A stretch of DNA of 32,792 nt from Deltaproteobacteria bacterium. GTDB taxonomy: Bacteria; Desulfobacterota; Dissulfuribacteria; Dissulfuribacterales; QOAL01. Below, piece by piece: positions 5,436 through 32,791 of the stretch. Each line of letters starts with the position of its first letter. The first letter of the stretch is position 1. A program made the translations under genes and the position numbers. The stretch spans positions 1-32,792 of the forward strand of contig JALVQQ010000191.1 of the NCBI GenBank assembly GCA_027025395.1, in the 5' to 3' direction. A model generated the notes under the pieces. That model was not told the origin of the DNA, searched no databases, and was given only the letters and a program-made list of their open reading frames with translations.

Positions 5436-6880
5436 TCACCCTTCGAGGTCGGGACTGATATTGGCAAAACCTGTTGCAAGCTCCAGGTTGTATGCTGCCC
5501 GCAGGAGTTTTTCTTCCTGAAAGTGATCAGCCATTAACTGCAATCCAACCGGAAGCCTGCCGCCAGCCAGGCCGCAGGGCACGGACATGGCCGGAATACC
5601 GGCAAGATTCACCGGTATTGTGAATATGTCAGACAGGTACATCTGGAGCGGATCATCCACCTTGTCCCCTATCCTGAATGCAGGGGTTGGGGCCACCGGG
5701 GCGGCAAGCACATCACATCCTTCTTCGATAAAGGCGTTCTTGAAATCTCTTGTTATAAGGGTTCGCACCTGGGATGCCTTTCGGTAAAAGGCGTCATAAT
5801 ATCCTGCGGAGAGGCAGTATGTGCCTATCATGATGCGGCGTTTGACCTCGTCGCCGAAACCTTCGGTGCGCGTGGCCTGGTACATCTCCATGAGGCTTGA
5901 ATAGTCGCTGGCCCTGAATCCGTACTTTACGCCATCATAACGGGAAAGATTGGAGGAGGCCTCGGCAGGGGCTATGATATAGTAGGTGGCCACTGCATAC
6001 TGGGTATGAGGAAGCGAGACTTCCCTTATCTCTGCGCCCTGGCCTGCAAGCGCCTCGATTCCGCCACGCACCAGTTTTTCAACCTCGGGATCAAGCCCTT
6101 CAATGAAATACTCGGACGGCACCCCCACGGTAAGGCCTTTCATGCCCTTGACCAGGCTTTCGGTGTACCTTGGCACCGGCACGTCAGCCGAGGTCGAATC
6201 CCTGGGATCATGGCCCGATATTGCTTCAAGCAGGATGGCGCAGTCCCTGACATCCCGGGTAAGGGGCCCTATCTGGTCAAGAGATGAGGCAAAAGCCACA
6301 AGACCGAAACGGGATACCCTGCCGTATGTGGGCTTCATTCCCACCACGCCGCAGTGAGACGCTGGCTGCCTGATGGAGCCGCCGGTGTCTGAACCAAGGG
6401 ATGCAACACATATCCTGGCTGCCACCGCCGCGGCTGAGCCGCCGCTGGAGCCGCCGGGAATACGATCAAGGTCCCAGGGATTTCTCGTCTTCATGAATGC
6501 GGAATTCTCGGTGGAAGAGCCCATTGCAAACTCGTCCATGTTCAGTTTGCCAAGCATGACCGCCCCCTGGCTGTAGAGGGGACAAAATTCTCAAGCATGC
6601 GTGAAGCACAGGTGGTGCGCACACCCCTTGTACAGATAAGGTCCTTGATTCCAAGGGGTATGCCGGAGAGCGCCGTGGCCCTGCCCTTGCCGATTTCCCG
6701 CTCAGCCTGCTCCGCCATGTTGAGCGCGGCATCCCCGGTAACGGTAATATATGAATTTACCTTCCTGTCAACCGTGCTGATTCTTTCAAGATAAGCTTTC
6801 ACAAGCTCCCGCACCGAGACATCGCCAGCATGCAGCGGCTCCTGAAGCTCATGAAGTGTCAGGCCGGTGAGATTATCCAT
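5436..6880 (-). pseudogene. gatA: Asp-tRNA(Asn)/Glu-tRNA(Gln) amidotransferase subunit A, frameshifted by an internal deletion near 6578
   Basis: ORF 6542..6880 gives the GatA N-terminus (GIPLGIKDLICT...[13 protein letters not shown]). ORF 5436..6557 gives [33 protein letters not shown] and [10 protein letters not shown]. The frames differ and the conserved PYDATV segment is absent. Could be an assembly artefact. Confidence 0.9.
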
Positions 6881-10551: not shown

Positions 10552-12273
10552 TTATGGCGCCTTGATCAGATGGCGCTTGATCTTGCGCGTGGAGGTTTTG
10601 GGAAGCTCCTCATTTATCAGATGAAACTCTTTTATCCGCTTGTATGATGCAATGGTGTTATTAACCGTTTTGACCTCCTGGCTGATCAGCTCCTCCACTT
10701 CACTCTCTGCCAGGGTCCTTCCGGGATAATATTCACCTATTACTTCATAGTCCGGCACTATCACGGCGCAGACATCCTCTCCGGCAGTGCCGGAACGGGG
10801 CCGACCGTATATCATGGACTCGAGGATGAAGGGCCGACGGTTGAGTTCAGCCTCGATCTCCTCGGGATATACATTTTTACCAGCGGCGGTAACTATAAGG
10901 TTCTTTGAACGGCCGCATACATGGACGTACCCATCCTCATCCACAAACCCCAGATCGCCAGTGGCGAGCCACCCGTCATCTATCACCTGGCCGGTCGCCT
11001 CCTGATCGTTCAGGTAACCCTTCATTACCATAGGCCCCCTGAAACACAGTTCACCTATGCCCTGGGAATCAGGCTGAAGCACTTTTACCTGCACGCCGGG
11101 AAGCGGCTTGCCAATGGTTTCGTTTCTGGGCGCGTCAGGGGGATTGATGGTGAGCACCGGACTGGCCTCCGTGAGACCGTATCCCTGGAGTATCAACATG
11201 CCCAGACGGTTGAAATCCCGGGATACGAACAGCGGAAGGGCCGCGCCTCCGGAGATGAAAAATTTGATGCTCCCAAGACCGGCCTTTCCCCTGAGAGAAC
11301 GGAACAGCACCTTGCCCAGATCTTTTTTCCCGGCCTTTTCTCCCAGCCTGACCAGTTTCATCATTGCCCTGAAGGCATGACGCCTTACAGGCGGAGCCTT
11401 TTCAACCGCCCTGAAAATACCCTCCACCATTTTCTGGAACAGCAGGGGCACCCCAAGCATTATGGTCGTGCCCGAGGACCTGATATCCTCCATGAGGTAT
11501 TTTGAACGCAGGCTCCGGGCATAGGTAACATGGGCACCTGTATAGATAGGCAGCAGAAATCCTGCCGTGCATTCAAAGGTATGATTCATCGGCAGCACGG
11601 ACAAAAAACGCTCTTCACCAATAGCAAGATAACCCGCGATGGCCCTTTCGCATGCAAGGACATCGGACACAAGATTGGAATGGGTGAGCATGACCCCCTT
11701 TGGGCTGCCGGTTGTGCCTGAAGTAAAGATTATGGCGGCAAGATCAGAGGATTCCACGTGAGGCAACCCCGGGCCGGCGGCCCCTTCCCCAGCAGCCCTT
11801 ATATCGTCAACGGACATCACCCCTTCCCTGGCCTGCTCCCGCGCGGCGGCCGGAACAAGTGAAAACATGAAATCAGGAAGAGGAAATCCCCTGGGACAAT
11901 CCTGAAGAATATCAATAAAGCGCGGATCGGCAAAGGCGAACCGGGCGCCCGCGCCGGCAAAGAGCTGGCGTATCTCGTTTTCGCTGAGCAGTGAGTCAAC
12001 CGGAACATTTACCCCGCCCGCCATGCTGACGGCCAGATAGGCCCTGCCCCACTCGGGGCTGTTTTTGCCAAGGATCACCACCCGGTCACCCGGCCTGAGC
12101 CCCAGGGCCACAAGCCCCCGGGCCAGCAGTTTCACATCATCCGCCAGTTCCCTGAAGGTGACGCTTCTCGGGATATCAAGTGCTGAATGGGCAGGACGGT
12201 CGCCGTAGGCCGCCCCGGCCTGCATCAGCAGTTCCGGGATGGTATTTCTGGCAAGAGCAGGTGCCTTCAACAT
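10552..12273 (-). CDS. fadD: Long-chain fatty-acid--CoA ligase (AMP-binding, FadD-like)
   Basis: IIFTSGTTGSPKGVMLTH, QGYGLTEASP, GWLATGDLG, GRSKNLIV...GKNVYPEEIE and PKTSTRKIKR; follows fadL. Confidence 0.88.
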   Translation of the reverse strand: MLKAPALARNTIPELLMQAGAAYGDRPAHSALDIPRSVTFRELADDVKLLARGLVALGLRPGDRVVILGKNSPEWGRAYLAVSMAGGVNVPVDSLLSENEIRQLFAGAGARFAFADPRFIDILQDCPRGFPLPDFMFSLVPAAAREQAREGVMSVDDIRAAGEGAAGPGLPHVESSDLAAIIFTSGTTGSPKGVMLTHSNLVSDVLACERAIAGYLAIGEERFLSVLPMNHTFECTAGFLLPIYTGAHVTYARSLRSKYLMEDIRSSGTTIMLGVPLLFQKMVEGIFRAVEKAPPVRRHAFRAMMKLVRLGEKAGKKDLGKVLFRSLRGKAGLGSIKFFISGGAALPLFVSRDFNRLGMLILQGYGLTEASPVLTINPPDAPRNETIGKPLPGVQVKVLQPDSQGIGELCFRGPMVMKGYLNDQEATGQVIDDGWLATGDLGFVDEDGYVHVCGRSKNLIVTAAGKNVYPEEIEAELNRRPFILESMIYGRPRSGTAGEDVCAVIVPDYEVIGEYYPGRTLAESEVEELISQEVKTVNNTIASYKRIKEFHLINEELPKTSTRKIKRHLIKAP

Positions 12274-12307
12274 GAATCTGCCTTTTGCCTCCTGTGGCCC
12301 GGCATGA

Positions 12308-13564
12308 TCAGAATGTCCAGCTGAATGATACGTTTGCTATATGGGCATCTCCCTTGTATGTGCCCTTAAGGGTGGGGGTCGCCTTCTTGCCGACCTTGGC
12401 GTCCTCAACAGCCACGTAGGAGTATGCGGCATCAATGGTCAGCCGGTTCCAGCTCCAGCCCACGCCGAAACCGAAGATATTGCGGTCATTGGTGGAGAGT
12501 GACGGATCCCTGAAATCATCATCAATGGGTGACTCATCCCATGCGTATGAAAGCCGGAATGTCCACTGATCGTTCAGATAATACTCAGCGCCCAGACGGA
12601 TACACCACACGTCATCCCAATCCTTTTCCACTTCCACAATGCCCTCCTGGCCGGTTCCGGGTTGCTTGTCATAATTGAATTTGAGGTTTTCATATGCTGA
12701 CCACTGGGTCCACTGCAACTCTCCGGAAAACCGGAAATTTTTCAGCACGGTTGTGGATACGGCGAGAGAAAGCGTTGCCGGCAGATCCATGGGGAGGGTT
12801 AAATCACTTTCCGGGAACTTGCCGTTCATAACCGCATCGTAAGGCGGAGGCAGTGCCGGAAGCTCATATTTTGCGTCTCCGTCTATCCTGGTGCTTACAT
12901 GTGAATGATATGTAATTCCAAAACTCCAGTCATCAAACGGAACTGCCATTGCGGAAAGGACATAACCTGCTCCCCAGTCATCCCCTTCAACATCGGTATA
13001 GACATCTCCAAGAGGGGTAGGGATAAACTTTCTCATCTCTGCATCCACGTACACCACCTGCAGGCCAGCCGAAACCGAAAGCCAGTCAAACAGCTTTCCG
13101 GAAACGGCAGGCGTTATGTATATGGTGGAAAGCTCCGTGTACTGTGCATAATAGCGCCCTTCCCAGTGGTTATCCCACTCTGTTGTGAGACCGTAGGGCG
13201 CATTGATGGAAAGAGAGGCCCCGAACCTGTCCATAAATGGCATTGCGCCATACATATAGGGTACAAGATAGGCTATATGCTTGAGATTGTGATCATCCTT
13301 GTCATTATCAAGCTCCATGGACGGAAAAATCAGGGCGCCTCCGGCAGTAACGGCCGGCCGGTCCAGAAGGGCCGCGCCGGCAGGGTTGAACCACGCACAC
13401 TCGGCCACATCATGCCTGGCGGACATTGCCGCGCTGTTACCCATCGCCTTGGCGGAAAGCTCATTAAAAAGCTGAAACCCGGCCGCCTGAACGCTGTACG
13501 CCCTGGCGCAGAAAATAATTACAGCAGCAAGCAAGCAAAAACTCCCGGTTCTTTTAAACATCAT
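12308..13564 (-). CDS. fadL: FadL/OmpP1/TodX family outer-membrane long-chain fatty acid/hydrocarbon transporter
   Basis: Signal peptide, then mature N-terminus AGFQLFNELSAKAMG, WFNPAG, APYGLTTEW and C-terminal SFSWTF. SD GGGAGG precedes ATG 13564. Confidence 0.9.
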   Translation of the reverse strand: MMFKRTGSFCLLAAVIIFCARAYSVQAAGFQLFNELSAKAMGNSAAMSARHDVAECAWFNPAGAALLDRPAVTAGGALIFPSMELDNDKDDHNLKHIAYLVPYMYGAMPFMDRFGASLSINAPYGLTTEWDNHWEGRYYAQYTELSTIYITPAVSGKLFDWLSVSAGLQVVYVDAEMRKFIPTPLGDVYTDVEGDDWGAGYVLSAMAVPFDDWSFGITYHSHVSTRIDGDAKYELPALPPPYDAVMNGKFPESDLTLPMDLPATLSLAVSTTVLKNFRFSGELQWTQWSAYENLKFNYDKQPGTGQEGIVEVEKDWDDVWCIRLGAEYYLNDQWTFRLSYAWDESPIDDDFRDPSLSTNDRNIFGFGVGWSWNRLTIDAAYSYVAVEDAKVGKKATPTLKGTYKGDAHIANVSFSWTF

Positions 13565-14078
13565 ACCCTCCCTAAGATATAAAATTTCAGGCAAATCTGG
13601 CCCGGCGACCTGGCTTGAGACCATGCCCCGAGGGCAATCCCAGGCAGCCTGCCATCCCCAATGCAATAATCATGGCTGGCGCTGCCCCGTGCTGAACAAC
13701 CTGCCCTGGCTGCGCCGCGCCTCTCAACACGCACAAAAGGGCTTCTCAACAAATCCGGGCATTTTCTGAATGTATCTGCCTCAAAGGCGCAACAGATACA
13801 GGCAGAATGCGCTACAGACATTTTTTTTGGCCTGTCTGCCTGCAAACGCCCTGGACGCTGTGGTTGACGGCGCTCCGGACGGTGACTTTTACATGCCGCC
13901 TGACCGAATTCATCAAGGAGCCAAATCTTCATATTTATAACACAGATTCTCATCAATTACAAAATTACTGGCCGGGATGCGTGCCGGTACAACTGAATAT
14001 AAACCACCTGAAAATCAACCGGAGACAACCGTCATTACAACCCTTACGCCGCGGGCGCGGAAACCTGGACATCAAAAC

Positions 14079-14104
14079 AAAAAAGGGGGCGTCAAGCCCC
14101 CTTT
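14079..14104 (-). terminator. Rho-independent terminator of the cytochrome-porin operon
   Basis: AAAGGGGGC-GTCAA-GCCCCCTTT hairpin; on the minus strand it is followed by a T-run, about 40 nt after the porin stop. Confidence 0.85.
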
Positions 14105-14145: not shown

Positions 14146-16554
14146 CTAGAATGCATAGGTAAGGTAGCCCATTACAAACTGGGCGGTATTGCCCTCGTCA
14201 CCATAGACGTATGGATCATCATCGTCAAAATGGGTGAAGTAGTAGTTGAGGCCGATACCAACCCCGCTGTCCAGCATGTATGAAGTCCCTATTGAGAAGT
14301 CAATCTGCTGGTAATCAAGATTTGAATATTTGTCTATGCCATTGATGTACGCCACATCGTAGAGATAGGGCTGAAGGGGATTCTGCCCGGCGCTTGTCAT
14401 GGTATAGGCGTCCAGCTTTGCATCTCCGGTGGGATACATGCTGTCAAAATCGAGCTTGTCTATATCTCCACGTCCTATGGTCCAGCTGAAGTCAGTGGTG
14501 ATATTCCAGTTGGGAAGAATCTGGTATGCAATGTTTGCAACAAATGAATGGGCCTCGGTGTAGTAATCCATATCGGTCTTTTCCGAACCAAACTGGTCCG
14601 TTGTTATGAAGTTACCTCAGCCGTCGTAGATGGCTATACAGTATTGCGAATCGTAACTGTCATACATGTATGTATAGCCACCGGATATTGTGAGATTGCG
14701 GATTGGATTGGCCATGATATTCAGACCTGTCATAAGGAGGTTGTTGCTCCAGTCCCTGCCGTCAAGCTCACCGTTCTTTGAGTAGCGGTACTTGACATGG
14801 AAGCTGGTATTGAGCATCGACATTGCGTTCCAGTAGGTCCTGAACTTGACCTCGTATATCTGGTCAGGCCTGTTGGAACGATCACCTGTGCGCTTGTCGT
14901 AGATTGCCGGCCCGTAGGCGCGGTCAAGGTCATAGAAATCAGCTGCATTCGGCTTGCTTGCATACCTGCCATAGGAGCCGTCAGGTGTGCATGAGGCATT
15001 GTTGAGCCTGTATGCATCATCTATGAAGGCCATCTTGTAATCAAGGGCGAATTTGAGTCCGTGCATCAGATGATAATCCGCACCGAACTTGAACAGATGC
15101 TCCTTGGTGCTCTCGGGGACACTGTGTACGTCGTAATGATCCCTGTTTTCCTCTGCGAATTCGTACTCTCCCTTGATCTTGAGGTTACGCAGCACCCTCC
15201 AGGCGGCGTTTACACCCACCTTGAAGTTATTGCTGTCATAACCGGAGAGCCGCTCATACTCCGGCTCAATGTACTCTTCAACCGCTGCCGGATCCGCGCC
15301 ATGAGCAATGTATCCCTCGGCGAGGGTCATGGTGTCGCCGGACTTGGTATTGTTCCTGTTCTGGACCTTTTCAACATATACATCCGAGTTGTCCAGGGCC
15401 TGATACTTGCCAAAGATATTAACGGTAAGGCCTGGCATGACCCTGGCGGTAATCCTTCCGCCAAACGTATTGTCCTTGAGCTTGAGAGAATCATCATAGT
15501 TGCCAGTGAGCACATCATAGGCCCCGCGCGTGGATGTGTTCTTGTTATTTGAGTAGAGATAGAACGCATTCAGCGTGGTGTGCCCGTTAATGTCCCAACG
15601 GAACTTCGCATTGTGCTTGTTCCTGCGGTTTTCAGGGACCTCCGCATAGGGCAGGGGGCCGCTGGCGCTGTTGTACTGGACCCTGTTAAGGAAATCCTCT
15701 CCCACCTTGCCCTTGGTGTTGTTATAGAGATTCTCCATCTCTTGATCATCAGTATTGAACTCCCTGTGCATGAAGGAATAGTTGAACGCCATTGTGCCGA
15801 TACGCAGGTTGAGTTCCGGACCGAACTCGTTGTTGGTCTCCTTGATCTCCTTTGTGTCGGACACAATGTGACATGCGCGGCACTTGCTGTTGGTCATGGC
15901 CTGCCTGTCGCCTTTTCTCTGTTCAAACCTGTGATGCAGGGTCAGGTCAAACTCCGGCACGTTCGGGATATGGAACGCCACGGAATGTTTGAGCAGCTCC
16001 CTGCTGATGGCATACTGGTTTGTGGGGTCACGGTCGGTGTGGTAAACCGAGGCTGTGCCGATTGTATTCGCCCCTCCGGTGTTATAGGTAATGCCGGTTT
16101 CAGGATCGGTTCCTGTCCTCGGTTTCTGGCCCTTCGGCTTGTTTGTGCTGAACACATGCGCCTCGAGATTGTCAAGGCTCACATGGCCCAGCCTGTGATA
16201 CAGGCGGTTGTAGTCGGCCTTGTAAACCATGACCCTTCCGAGCGAGAGCATTCCCTCATAGTCCTGATCGTTGAGATCACGGTACAGGCCGTCAAAACTC
16301 AGATCAAGGACACCGCTGTTTACCCGGAGATCTCCCCCGAACACTCCTGTCCATCTCTTTGCTGCCAGGGCATTGTACTCAAGGCCGCCCTTTGAACCGC
16401 CTTCATCCGCATGGAGCCTGCCCTGGGCATTCCAGGTGGCGCCTGCCTTGAGGCTGCCTTCAAATACCTTTTCATCTTCCGCGGCGCATACAGAGGCCCC
16501 GATAACCGCAAGGGCCAGAACCGCCACTGTAATGAGAACTGAAATTCGTTTCAT
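14146..16554 (-). CDS. MtrB/PioB-like outer-membrane beta-barrel selenoprotein with CxxCH (802 aa, predicted Sec646; resembles the GSU2204-type CXXCH (seleno)protein family)
   Basis: ORFs 14617..16554 and 14146..14571 are in the same frame, separated only by TGA plus 15 sense codons. Signal peptide, amphipathic beta-strands on both sides of the TGA, CRACH at aa 225-229, YCIAIYDG-U, OMP-type C-terminus YLTYAF and a SECIS-like hairpin. Adjacent to a decaheme cytochrome. Confidence 0.88.
14575..14616 (-). promoter_or_regulatory. Bacterial SECIS-like element directly 3' of the in-frame UGA
   Basis: mRNA reads UGA GGUAACUUCAUAACAA CGGACCA-GUU-UGGUUCG GAAAAGACC: 7-bp upper stem (14600-14584), apical loop starting with G at nt 24 after the UGA, and possible lower pairing GGU/ACC and UUC/GAA. 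Confidence 0.78.
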
Positions 16555-16572
16555 CCGGTTTCCCTCCTTAAA

Positions 16573-17595
16573 CTATCGGGTAAGCCCATGTCCGCTCGTT
16601 ACGGTCTGGGATGGCATGTCAGAGCCATGTACCTGCTGGTGGCACTGGGTGCATTTTGTCATGAATGATTTCTGGAAACCAAACTCGGTGGGCTGGATCT
16701 TTCTGCCAGCCGCCTGCACCCTGGGCTGCCCCTTTGCAGGAATCGGAGACGCATCAACATTGTTTGACGCCCTTCCCGCATGGAAGTGGGCCTCATGACA
16801 CTGCAGACAGAGAAACGGCTCCTGCTGCTGCAGCAGATTGTTGGCCACCGTACCGTGCGGATCATGACACATCAGACAGTTTTCCACCACCGGATCATGT
16901 TCAAAGACAAATGGACCCTGATAACGGGTATGGCATGTGAGACACAGATCATTGAGGCGCTCGTCGGTACGGAGCATTCCCTCATCCATGCACTGGCTGC
17001 CGTGGGCATTGTGGCAGTCGGAACATGTCATCTTGCCCTCTTTTACCGGATGATGAGACATCAGATACATCTGCGCCATCACATCCTGGTGACACTGGGC
17101 GCAGAGTTTTGGCTCCTTCTCTTCGGCAAGCAGGTTCCTGTTTTTATTGCCGTGTATTTTATGGCACCTGGTGCAGGATACATCGTATTCCGCATGGGTG
17201 GAGCCAGGCCAGTTCATCTGGCCGCCAACGGTATGACACTGGGTGCATACACCTGCTATCTCCTCGGCCTCCATCTCATGGGAGCCGGGATTCAGTATCT
17301 TCTCTGTGTCTCCGTCATTATCCACATGAACCGAGCCAGGTCCGTGGCAACCCTCGCAGCCTGCATGATAACCGCCAGCCACTTCAAATGAAGCTATCTT
17401 CATATGGATATTATACTTGTCGTTAGCCATATCCTCATGGCAGTCCAGACATGTTTCACTCCCGACATAGGTAGCGCCAGGTGCTGCTTCCGGGGCCCTG
17501 ATAACGCTTGCCCTGTGCTCAAGAGGGTTATCCACCACCTGACAACCTGCAGCGAGAAACAGGCCCGCCGCCAGCATAATTAATTTTTTCAGCAT
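16573..17595 (-). CDS. DmsE/MtrA-family decaheme c-type cytochrome, lipoprotein
   Basis: Ten CxxCH motifs (CLDCH, CEGCH, CTQCH, CTRCH, CAQCH, CSDCH, CLTCH, CLMCH, CLQCH, CTQCH), MtrA-like GPFVFEHDPVVENC and HQQVHGSDMPS, lipobox LAAG-C and SD GGAGGG. Confidence 0.95.
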   Translation of the reverse strand: MLKKLIMLAAGLFLAAGCQVVDNPLEHRASVIRAPEAAPGATYVGSETCLDCHEDMANDKYNIHMKIASFEVAGGYHAGCEGCHGPGSVHVDNDGDTEKILNPGSHEMEAEEIAGVCTQCHTVGGQMNWPGSTHAEYDVSCTRCHKIHGNKNRNLLAEEKEPKLCAQCHQDVMAQMYLMSHHPVKEGKMTCSDCHNAHGSQCMDEGMLRTDERLNDLCLTCHTRYQGPFVFEHDPVVENCLMCHDPHGTVANNLLQQQEPFLCLQCHEAHFHAGRASNNVDASPIPAKGQPRVQAAGRKIQPTEFGFQKSFMTKCTQCHQQVHGSDMPSQTVTSGHGLTR

Positions 17596-18475: not shown

Positions 18476-18529
18476 TTGACTTGACCAGGACAGTTGGTAA
18501 TATTCTGAATGAATGTGCATTCATTTCAG
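18476..18529 (+). promoter_or_regulatory. Sigma70-type promoter with palindromic TetR/FadR operator
   Basis: TTGACT (18476)-16 nt-TAATAT with a TGn extension, followed by the perfect palindrome AATGAATG-TG-CATTCATT (18508-18525), similar to the Bacillus FadR box. Confidence 0.75.
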
Positions 18530-18537
18530 GCCAGCCA

Positions 18538-19161
18538 ATGATGAAAGTAGCAGACAAACACGATAAAATCGTACGCGCCGCAATACGGGTTTTTGCAAGA
18601 AACGGTTTCTTCAACTCGAGAATTTCAGAAATCGCCAAGGAAGCCAATGTGGCTGACGGCACCATCTACTTATATTTCAACAACAAATACGATATCCTCA
18701 TCACCATCTTTGAAGAGGAGATGGGCAAAATCATTGCCAATGTCAAGCGAGAAATGGCTTCACTTTCAGACCCGTGCGAAAAACTGCACTGTTTCGCCCG
18801 GATGCACCTGGCATTAATGGAAGAAAAAAGGGAGCTGGCGGAAGTAATTCAGGTGGAGCTGCGCCAGAGCTCCAAGTTCATAAAGGACTACCACAACAAG
18901 AAATTTGTGGAGTACACCAATATTATTGAGTCCATACTGAAAGATGGCCAGGAACGGGGGATTTTCCGCAAAGAAATAATTCCGGAAATTTTCAAGCGGG
19001 CATTTTTCGGAGCGCTTGATGAAATGTCACGCTTCTGGGTGCTGTCCTCCCAGAAAAAATTCGGCGTAAAGACGGCGGCGCGCCAGATTACAAACCTTTT
19101 CCTCCAGGGCAGCCTTACGGACAAGGGCCGCCAGCACCGGTCCTGCTGCCATATCACCTGA
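18538..19161 (+). CDS. TetR family transcriptional regulator, Bacillus FadR (YsiA)-like
   Basis: HTH ISEIAKEANVADGTIYLYFNNK; C-terminal domain VIQVELRQS and FFGALDE as in YsiA/FadR. Start ATG 18538 or 18541 (TTG 18481 lies within the promoter). Confidence 0.9.
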   Translation: MMKVADKHDKIVRAAIRVFARNGFFNSRISEIAKEANVADGTIYLYFNNKYDILITIFEEEMGKIIANVKREMASLSDPCEKLHCFARMHLALMEEKRELAEVIQVELRQSSKFIKDYHNKKFVEYTNIIESILKDGQERGIFRKEIIPEIFKRAFFGALDEMSRFWVLSSQKKFGVKTAARQITNLFLQGSLTDKGRQHRSCCHIT

Positions 19162-31510: not shown

Positions 31511-32791
31511 TCAGCCTGAGCTCCTGGCCCGTTGGCAAAAACTCACCCATTTACTGCCTCCTTTTCTGCTTTTTCCATTCACATCATGCCCGGCCTCTCC
31601 CTTGCCCTCCGGTTCCCTGAGCATGCGGTAATACCTGCTGTCATGGGGAAGGTTTTCAAGAGCCATGAGCCTGTGGTAGCCGGCGCTCTGCATATCTCCC
31701 AGCCTTTTGTAGTACATGTACAGATAATAGTGGGCCATCCCCTTGTTTTTTGCCCTGGAGTATGCCCGGCCCATCTCAAGATAGAGATTCATGTAATCAG
31801 GCCACACAGGCTCGATTGCCCTGAATGTTGCAAGCGCCTCCTGAACCATGCCGTTATCAAGCAGCGCGCGCCCCAGATAGTAACGGGCCGCATGGTTGCG
31901 GGGATAAAGCCTGCAGTAGTCCTGGAGCAGCGGCAGTGCCTGCCTGTAACGGCCCGCCTCCAGATATGCCCGTCCGAGATCTATCTTGAATACATTCCTG
32001 TCCGGGGCGAGGGCCATCACCCTTTCAAACTCCTTGAAGGACTGTTCGTATTGCCGCATGCCGAGCAGTGACAGGGCAAGGCCGTAGTGCATGAACAGGT
32101 CATCTGGCCTGTCGGCAAGTTCACGCCGGTAATATACACACATGCGGGCAGGATCATGGGTCATGAGCTTGACCTTCACCTTTATCCGTTTGAGCCTGCA
32201 GGGATTCTCCTTTTGCCTCTCCGGGCATGGATGTTCCTTCACCAGGTCTTCAATATAGGTGATACGCTGGCTGGCCCCGGGGTGCGTGGACAGATAGCCG
32301 GGGATGGCATCGCTGCCCAGAAACCTGTTGCGGTTCATCTTCTCAAGGGTGGTCACAAGGCCCATTGGATCGTAACCGGCCCGGCATATCCACTGGTAGC
32401 CCCTGCGGTCCGCCTCCTCCTCGTCGGCCCGGCTGTACTTGAGCGACAGGCTCTGCCCAAGCGCCATTGACGATGTGAGAAGGGCGGAGGAACTCTGCCC
32501 CCCTCCCAAAAACAGACTTGCAATGGCCATGACAGCGGTACCGATATTGACCACCTTCATTTTGTCCATGCGCTTGGCGATATGACGTCCCTGTACATGG
32601 CCGCATTCGTGGGCGAGGATACAGGCCAGCTCATTGTCACTGTCTATTGCCTCAAGCAGGCCGGTATGGACGAAAATCAGGCCGCCCGGCGTGGCAAAGG
32701 CGTTTAGGGCATCGTCCTTTATAACAAAGAACCGGTAGTCAAAATATTTCCCGTGTATCACCGCCAGGATATTATGGCCTATATCCGAGAC
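31511..32791 (-). CDS. M48 family Zn metalloprotease with TPR repeats (BepA/YfgC-like), 5' partial
   Basis: LNAFATPGG, LAHECGH (HExxH), YSRADEEEADRRG, YLSTHP and TPR-like helices; the frame stays open to the window end. Confidence 0.9.
   Translation of the reverse strand, partial: VSDIGHNILAVIHGKYFDYRFFVIKDDALNAFATPGGLIFVHTGLLEAIDSDNELACILAHECGHVQGRHIAKRMDKMKVVNIGTAVMAIASLFLGGGQSSSALLTSSMALGQSLSLKYSRADEEEADRRGYQWICRAGYDPMGLVTTLEKMNRNRFLGSDAIPGYLSTHPGASQRITYIEDLVKEHPCPERQKENPCRLKRIKVKVKLMTHDPARMCVYYRRELADRPDDLFMHYGLALSLLGMRQYEQSFKEFERVMALAPDRNVFKIDLGRAYLEAGRYRQALPLLQDYCRLYPRNHAARYYLGRALLDNGMVQEALATFRAIEPVWPDYMNLYLEMGRAYSRAKNKGMAHYYLYMYYKRLGDMQSAGYHRLMALENLPHDSRYYRMLREPEGKGEAGHDVNGKSRKGGSKWVSFCQRARSSG

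Follow-up and report, generated by a model that had tools for sequence, protein, structure and literature searches.

Porin-cytochrome conduits carry electrons across the bacterial outer membrane, and their porins are regarded as passive insulation. PioAB and MtoAB are two-component conduits of this kind, and in MtrAB the decahaem subunit MtrA is a soluble periplasmic protein without a lipid anchor. In the structure of the Mtr complex of Shewanella baltica (6R2Q), MtrA projects with its N-terminal end into the periplasm, and at the surface, beneath MtrC, its haem A10 is exposed (PMC7198977). The present study concerns a candidate conduit in a Deltaproteobacteria bacterium (GenBank assembly GCA_027025395.1), encoded on a stretch of 32,792 nucleotides (contig JALVQQ010000191.1; hereafter the window) in which a gene for a decahaem c-type cytochrome lipoprotein is followed by a gene for an outer-membrane barrel that holds a haem attachment motif and a single in-frame TGA codon.

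The closest described systems are GSU2203/GSU2204 of Geobacter sulfurreducens and OmcKL of the sulfate reducers that partner anaerobic methanotrophic archaea (ANME), which fall in the same NCBIfam families as the pair described here. With haematite, GSU2203 (OmcK) and GSU2204 were up 2.68-fold and 2.36-fold, respectively, in the values given by Kato 2013 (PMC4070692). In its passages on the ‘OmcKL’ conduit of ANME partners, Murali 2023 takes OmcL to be the porin and OmcK to be extracellular, deems the absence of an adjacent periplasmic cytochrome gene odd, and puts expression of the HotSeep-1 homologues in ANME consortia at about 4-fold above that of OetABI (PMC10553843). That conduit has the same two-gene order as the one in the window and likewise no adjacent third cytochrome (PMC10553843); unlike the Geobacter and ANME-partner copies, the copy here belongs to a hydrothermal-type Desulfobacterota genome that carries dsrA. 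Within the literature on extracellular electron transfer (EET), a 2025 paper in ISME J assigns clustered Desulfobacterota mtrAB pairs to the Mtr pathway and contains the string ‘selen’ 0 times (PMC12133095), and the passages that deal with OmcL treat it as a plain porin, with the haem motif and selenocysteine (Sec) unmentioned (PMC10553843; PMC12133095). The family is listed as a selenoprotein in one table row of each of two reviews (PMC9312934; PMC13188914). The paper on Global Ocean Sampling (GOS) to which the 2026 review refers for this family leaves it unnamed in its main text, and among the papers covered our literature search found none joining the haem or Sec of OmcL to conduit function.

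Cyc2, the fused cytochrome-porin of iron oxidisers, is described as an outer-membrane barrel that itself bears one c-type haem, as is predicted here. Its haem motif is N-terminal and its barrel smaller, and it has neither a threaded multihaem wire nor Sec. MccSep (ExtKL, GSU2937-2936) is described as a pentahaem selenoprotein polysulfide reductase with polysulfide and selenite as substrates; like the barrel it brings haem c and Sec together and has its Sec after Asp-Gly (D-G-U in both), and it differs in that it is no barrel but is soluble, periplasmic and tetrameric, with His/Cys ligation of a haem (PMC13510729). The resemblance of the barrel to MccSep would be one of mechanism only. How polysulfide gets into the periplasm is called unclear in the paper on MccSep (PMC13510729).

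Here we report that the locus belongs to an already catalogued family (OmcK/OmcL, GSU2203/GSU2204) without a demonstrated function, and that UGA646 of its barrel gene is recoded as Sec, a read-through that is sound and well supported by comparative sequence evidence. New observations are a covarying hairpin resembling a selenocysteine insertion sequence (SECIS), a census of Sec, Cys and Gly forms, the dispensability of C522 and C639, and a strict pairing of the two genes; also new are sequence homology to the solved MtrA and MtrB and a predicted 26-strand topology that places the haem motif and Sec outside. A haem-Sec site at the cell surface is consistent with these data but unproven.

Family membership and selenocysteine recoding

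An earlier reading of the window, made from the sequence only, had described a decahaem lipoprotein gene, an 18-nucleotide (nt) gap, a barrel gene with a CxxCH at C225, a lone C522 and C639-x6-TGA(646), and a strong terminator, with no MtrC/OmcA-type cytochrome or DmsAB-type reductase in the operon. All of these features are present, on the minus strand, and no gene of the MtrC/OmcA or DmsAB types lies anywhere in the window. That reading had also named a GSU2203/GSU2204-like family, correctly, and both proteins score over curated NCBIfam cut-offs. The decahaem protein, which has ten CxxCH motifs and whose gene ends 18 nt before the ATG of the barrel gene directly downstream, reached 441.5 bits against NF041028 (GSU2203 decahaem; cut-off 325) and 245.7 bits against TIGR03508 (DmsE family; cut-off 192.2). 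The barrel reached 422.9 bits against NF041027 (GSU2204 family CXXCH-containing (seleno)protein; cut-off 350) over residues 12-645; this was its only match in the NCBIfam scan, so it does not match the MccSep family NF040886. It has the traits of NF041027, namely a single CxxCH, Sec at the conserved column and a frame open beyond it to residue 802. From the ATG at 16554 the reading frame contains the single in-frame TGA as residue 646 and stays open until the TAG at 14146..14148, and the product ends in ...YLTYAF, an aromatic C-terminus as typical of outer-membrane barrels. Its Cys and Sec positions are 23 (in the signal peptide), 225, 228, 522, 639 and U646, leaving 225, 228, 522 and 639 as the only Cys of the mature protein.

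The family has a wide distribution: a search of 1.84 billion representative proteins returned 298 family clusters, and hosts of the family are Desulfobacterota together with genomes labelled Nitrospirae, Aminicenantes and Acidobacteriota. Gene pairing was assessed in a context set of 60 loci with up to 10 kb either side of the barrel gene. A decahaem gene lies directly upstream of the barrel in 57 of them, and in the other three the sequence available upstream is shorter than 330 bp, so that the decahaem gene is adjacent in every locus with room for it (57/57). The remaining widely shared clusters, found in up to 41 of the 60 loci, consist of barrel fragments and of shadows antisense to the two genes, and the commonest neighbour cluster outside the pair is a housekeeping one in 14. 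A separate extracellular or catalytic subunit consistently present beside the pair, which would have counted against the sequence-only reading, was not seen, no third partner being conserved among the 60 loci.

Residue 646 was compared across 56 homologues (55 from named records of metagenome-assembled genomes, MAGs, plus the window; the truncated L107 and L109, and L110 and L111, which have many stops, were left out before the count), and the column holds U in 43, C in 12 and G in 1. In 41 related genomes there are 31 matches that extend across residue 646, of which 30 hold exactly one in-frame TGA with homology reaching residue 802, and the read-through is therefore not a chance open frame; all 30 best loci in a phylum sample of 401 genomes likewise have one TGA and continued homology, down to 22% identity. 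Among 150 natural family rows (9 from loci and 141 database representatives), 101 stop exactly one residue short of the Sec column, which marks them as gene calls truncated at UGA, and 15 have Cys. The hairpin that lies 3' of the UGA has 91.3% of its cells paired in the 43 Sec-form sequences and compensatory changes at 4 of its 6 pairs; these values were reached in 0 of 500 shuffles, slid windows pair at 14-61%, and RNAalifold independently predicts the same helix. When ten Cys forms and the Gly form L088 were folded singly, these 11 sequences showed no shared hairpin at the SECIS position. The Gly form itself (L088:9127-9186) has GGA instead of TGA with the hairpin retained; either its Sec was lost recently or a base was miscalled.

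Taking the TGA as a true stop, or the gene as broken, would leave a truncated barrel of 645 amino acids (aa) and an unrelated open reading frame (ORF) of 141 aa. Gene callers do treat it in this way, and the database entries of all 18 close relatives give product lengths of 624-658 aa; the same-frame homology to residue 802, the Cys opposite the TGA in 12 natural proteins and the covariation of the downstream hairpin all contradict a stop, and a barrel lacking its last five strands could presumably not close. We regard this explanation as next to impossible. The source genome (90.8% complete, 314 contigs) encodes Sec machinery over cut-off in each case (selA, 592.2 bits; selB, 344.2 bits; selD, 363.3 bits), and its selD gene itself contains one TGA. 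At default settings aragorn called 42 transfer RNAs (tRNAs), none of them tRNA-Sec. Two candidates for tRNA-Sec were rejected: the best match to RF01852 (47.4 bits) is a locus that aragorn calls tRNA-Trp, and a relaxed aragorn match on contig C312 is not tRNA-Sec-like on inspection. In X2 and X3 of four metagenome contig sets, the bin at the Sec codon (window 14576..14694) had the highest summed depth, a peak that hints weakly at many relatives with near-identical DNA there.

Conserved residues and predicted topology of the candidate conduit

The CxxCH of the barrel is invariant in both homologue sets counted (46/46 and 56/56), and of 145 database rows covering the site, 140 contain it; H120 is His in 54 of 54 covering sequences and H124 in 51 of 54. 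C522 is Cys in 34 and C639 in 43 of the 56 homologues, and all 12 Cys646 forms have Ala639. The predicted loops of these Cys646 forms lack Cys except for the CxxCH and C646, with three of them carrying one extra Cys nearer the C-terminus. Of the residues named in the sequence-only reading, the CxxCH and residue 646 (U or C in 55/56) are conserved, and C522 and C639 are not universal. Its Cys-x6-Sec redox centre is not obligatory, since Ala639 in every Cys646 form rules out C639-x6-U646 as an obligatory redox pair. In a tree of 89 sequences (106 before removal of duplicates and of rows shorter than 600 aa), read for grouping only, the 12 Cys forms cluster together and are nested among Sec forms. 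Five distant paralogues all keep the CxxCH and the His motif, and only two of them have Sec or Cys at 646, a pattern that points to the haem and His motifs as the older core and to Sec/Cys646 as an addition kept by most of the family. Sec was rejected as a required haem ligand because paralogues retain both motifs without Cys or Sec.

Both proteins are homologous to solved Mtr subunits. The decahaem profile of the family matched MtrA (chain 6r2q_A) at E 3.6e-64, in an alignment that spans all ten haem motifs. In contrast to MtrAB of Shewanella, the decahaem protein here is a lipoprotein and MtrC is absent; its LAAGC lipobox, with Cys18, sets it apart from the unanchored soluble form of MtrA. 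At the Cys-form loci L091-L112, in MAGs labelled Aminicenantes and Acidobacteriota, the decahaem protein lacks a lipobox; its signal peptide is of the ordinary kind, and this plain, MtrA-like signal peptide argues for insertion from the periplasm. A natural-family barrel profile centred on Cys forms aligned to residues 227-661 of MtrB (chain 6r2q_B) with E 2.9e-15, Pfam PF11854 (MtrB_PioB) was matched by 27 of 36 aligned relatives (best E 1e-33), and the Atlas model of a Cys-form homologue gave template-modelling (TM) values of 0.76-0.89 against models of MtrB/PioB clusters. MtrB differs at the position of the Sec loop, where it has a gap of 11 residues and lacks Cys, and its first 226 residues have no alignment to the barrel segment that contains the CxxCH and the His motif.

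Topology was parsed manually from hydrophobic alternation in the alignment, a sequence-level inference that stands in place of a 3-D model. The parse gives 26 strands, the number given for MtrB (PMC7198977), and 12 periplasmic turns of 2-6 residues. A separate parse of the Cys-form group, which is about 22% identical to the Sec group, gave the same strand plan. Gap-rich positions number 53, of which 48 map to extracellular loops and none to periplasmic turns. With five strands between U646 and the periplasmic C-terminus, and 14 between the CxxCH and U646, both sites would lie on the outer loop side; the His motif (loop 3), the CxxCH (loop 4), C522 (loop 9) and C639/U646 (loop 11) are all predicted to be extracellular.

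Feature coordinates and genomic setting

Features of the operon are listed in Table 1. The other genes of the window encode FadL, acyl-CoA ligase, a TetR/FadR regulator and housekeeping functions. The FadL transporter and acyl-CoA ligase genes lie downstream of the operon (10552..13666, minus) and the divergent FadR-like TetR regulator upstream of it (18481..19161, plus), with no link to the conduit seen for either. A BepA-like M48 protease (31511..32761, minus), of the beta-barrel assembly-enhancing family, scored 156.8 bits, below the cut-off of 570. The gatA gene (5436..6880, minus) consists of two overlapping ORFs in different frames, of which 6542..6880 corresponds to TIGR00132 positions 2-89 and 5436..6557 to positions 105-463, through either a frameshift or an assembly error. 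An Rfam scan of the window at gathering thresholds gave no match.

Table 1. Positions in the window of the operon's genes, motifs and regulatory elements.
Feature	Position	Strand	Remarks
Decahaem c-type cytochrome lipoprotein, OmcK/GSU2203 type	16573..17595	minus	340 aa, stop codon included
Outer-membrane barrel gene, OmcL/GSU2204 type	14146..16554	minus	802 aa with UGA646 as Sec, TAG included
Intergenic spacer with AGGAGG ribosome-binding site	16555..16572	minus	18 nt, read from sequence
Intrinsic terminator closing the operon	14082..14104	minus	9-bp stem, 6 G-C pairs, then T run
Lipobox Cys18 codon (L-A-A-G-C), decahaem	17542..17544	minus	invariant (24/24) in the alignment of decahaem partners of Sec-form barrels
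His motif H120-x3-H124, barrel	16183..16197	minus	conserved; predicted extracellular loop 3
Haem c attachment motif C225-R-A-C228-H229, barrel	15868..15882	minus	invariant; predicted extracellular loop 4
C522 codon, barrel	14989..14991	minus	predicted extracellular loop 9; Cys in 34/56
C639 codon, barrel	14638..14640	minus	predicted extracellular loop 11; Cys in 43/56
UGA codon, Sec646, motif D-G-U-G-N, barrel	14617..14619	minus	U/C/G = 43/12/1 of 56
SECIS-like hairpin CGGACC/AGUUU/GGUUCG	14584..14600	minus	starts 16 nt 3' of UGA; covaries

Around the barrel gene in other genomes, lineage-specific neighbours include housekeeping genes, namely serA-like and aminotransferase genes and genes for subunits of an oxoacid:ferredoxin oxidoreductase and ScpB, none of which occurs in the window. 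In 12 of the 60 loci, from sister genera (L059-L066, L068, L073, L074 and L087), a lipoprotein without a Pfam family lies 100-640 bp downstream of the barrel; it is mostly 340-380 aa long, with one copy cut by a contig end, and is absent from the window. Other ORFs with several CxxCH motifs occur within 10 kb in 11 of the 60 loci, one being a likely antisense shadow. The source genome, at its 90.8% completeness, has no match over cut-off to the OmcA/MtrC family, and none to NF040886 either; it contains 21 ORFs with three or more CxxCH. Contig C76 (L121:1953-6372) carries three adjacent multihaem ORFs (12, 20 and 12 CxxCH) beside a 378-aa ORF without a family match, a group that could be a second porin-cytochrome cluster, and contig C85 (L122) has a QrcA-like 12-haem ORF as well as one longer than 948 aa that holds 7 CxxCH.

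Readings of the proposed haem-selenocysteine site

The reading that we favour, and for which we see the chances as evenly balanced, is a two-protein outer-membrane conduit in which the loop haem and Sec of the barrel form an outward redox site that replaces an MtrC-type cytochrome. The decahaem protein would be a wire of the MtrA/DmsE type with its lipid-anchored N-terminus at the inner leaflet, and it would thread through a 26-strand MtrB/PioB-like barrel so that haem 10 reaches the outer rim. The barrel would be no bare sheath, its CxxCH, His motif and Sec forming an eleventh redox site, with the loop haem probably ligated by His229 and His120 and the His motif as the likely distal ligand. 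Loop haem and Sec646 would occupy the place of MtrC over haem 10, and electrons would be given to or taken from an external substrate there; we infer both the attachment of the haem and its contact with haem 10. The sequence-only reading had likewise proposed a surface enzyme with an eleventh haem and a Cys/Sec centre: the parse agrees in putting the haem motif and Sec outside, and the Cys part of that centre fell away with C522 and C639, neither of which is universal.

Such a site might act on sulfur. By analogy with MccSep, Sec may act as a nucleophile beside the haem and break S-S or Se bonds in polysulfide or elemental sulfur (S0) outside the cell, a role that we put forward tentatively. 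We are a shade more doubtful of the full proposal that the barrel is the first outer-membrane selenoenzyme, with a decahaem-fed haem-Sec site that cleaves the S-S (or Se/Te) bonds of external insoluble sulfur or polysulfide. A sulfur substrate would fit the hosts, given that dsrA is present and that relatives are labelled Desulfobulbaceae, Thermosulfurimonas, Dissulfuribacterales and Desulfuromonadales. Nearly as likely as a nucleophilic Sec is a conduit that merely relays electrons to minerals, electrodes or a syntrophic partner (direct interspecies electron transfer, DIET), as proposed for OmcKL, in which the barrel haem would be one more stepping stone and Sec/Cys646 would ligate haem or tune its potential without substrate chemistry. 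The haematite and consortium expression values favour such a relay, as do the 21 multihaem ORFs of the genome and the precedent of Sec as a metal ligand in formate dehydrogenase and NiFeSe hydrogenase; the excess of Sec-type over Cys rows (101 vs 15 of 150) is more typical of a reactive residue, the paralogues that retain the haem and His motifs without Cys/Sec indicate that a ligand role is not required, and the invariant His120 is available as distal ligand. Surface cytochromes of Geobacter are often lipoproteins, which would suit an inward-facing arrangement in which the lipoprotein decahaem is the extracellular part and the haem/Sec loops, in the lumen or periplasm, take electrons from periplasmic carriers. 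Murali et al. assumed this placement of OmcK, and no periplasmic cytochrome gene stands beside it in their account (PMC10553843). The five strands after U646 and the even number (14) between the CxxCH and U646 point to the outer side instead, the alignment of the decahaem protein with MtrA, a protein that has its N-terminus in the periplasm, runs from end to end, and its Cys-form counterparts have an ordinary, MtrA-like signal peptide, so we consider an inward-facing site improbable.

Several results count against a haem-Sec site at the surface. The predicted topology derives wholly from the hydrophobic-alternation parse, and the passage of the haem-bearing loop across the outer membrane is an assumption of the model. 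The barrel of the window itself has no Pfam MtrB_PioB match at E<=0.1, so that, of the family models against which the sequence-only reading had suggested searching its product, NF041027 responded and MtrB_PioB did not; the Sec-form profile A1 likewise gave 0 matches to PDB chains at E<=10. C522 and C639 are dispensable across whole clades, and three of the five distant paralogues hold the CxxCH without any Cys/Sec at 646, which implies that the barrel haem does not need Sec. No tRNA-Sec was found in the 90.8%-complete, 314-contig genome. Published expression data, in the parts that concern this family, favour minerals and syntrophic partners over sulfur (PMC4070692; PMC10553843), and the barrel and MccSep occur together in 8 of 401 genomes where about 5.4 would be expected, a count made on non-independent kin that shows no clear co-occurrence.

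The family has usually been mis-called as a truncated protein, and in EET papers it has been taken as a plain OmcL or MtrB porin. It would be an exception to the view of conduit porins as passive insulation, being a barrel equipped at the surface with a cofactor and with the rarest of the amino acids. Even if the barrel is a relay only, genome surveys of Mtr-like conduits must read through UGA. A surface haem-Sec site would offer a testable answer to the question of the polysulfide route in Geobacter, which has both GSU2203/GSU2204 and genetics. If the barrel is indeed a surface selenoenzyme, it would allow respiration or disproportionation of solid S0 without entry of the substrate into the periplasm.

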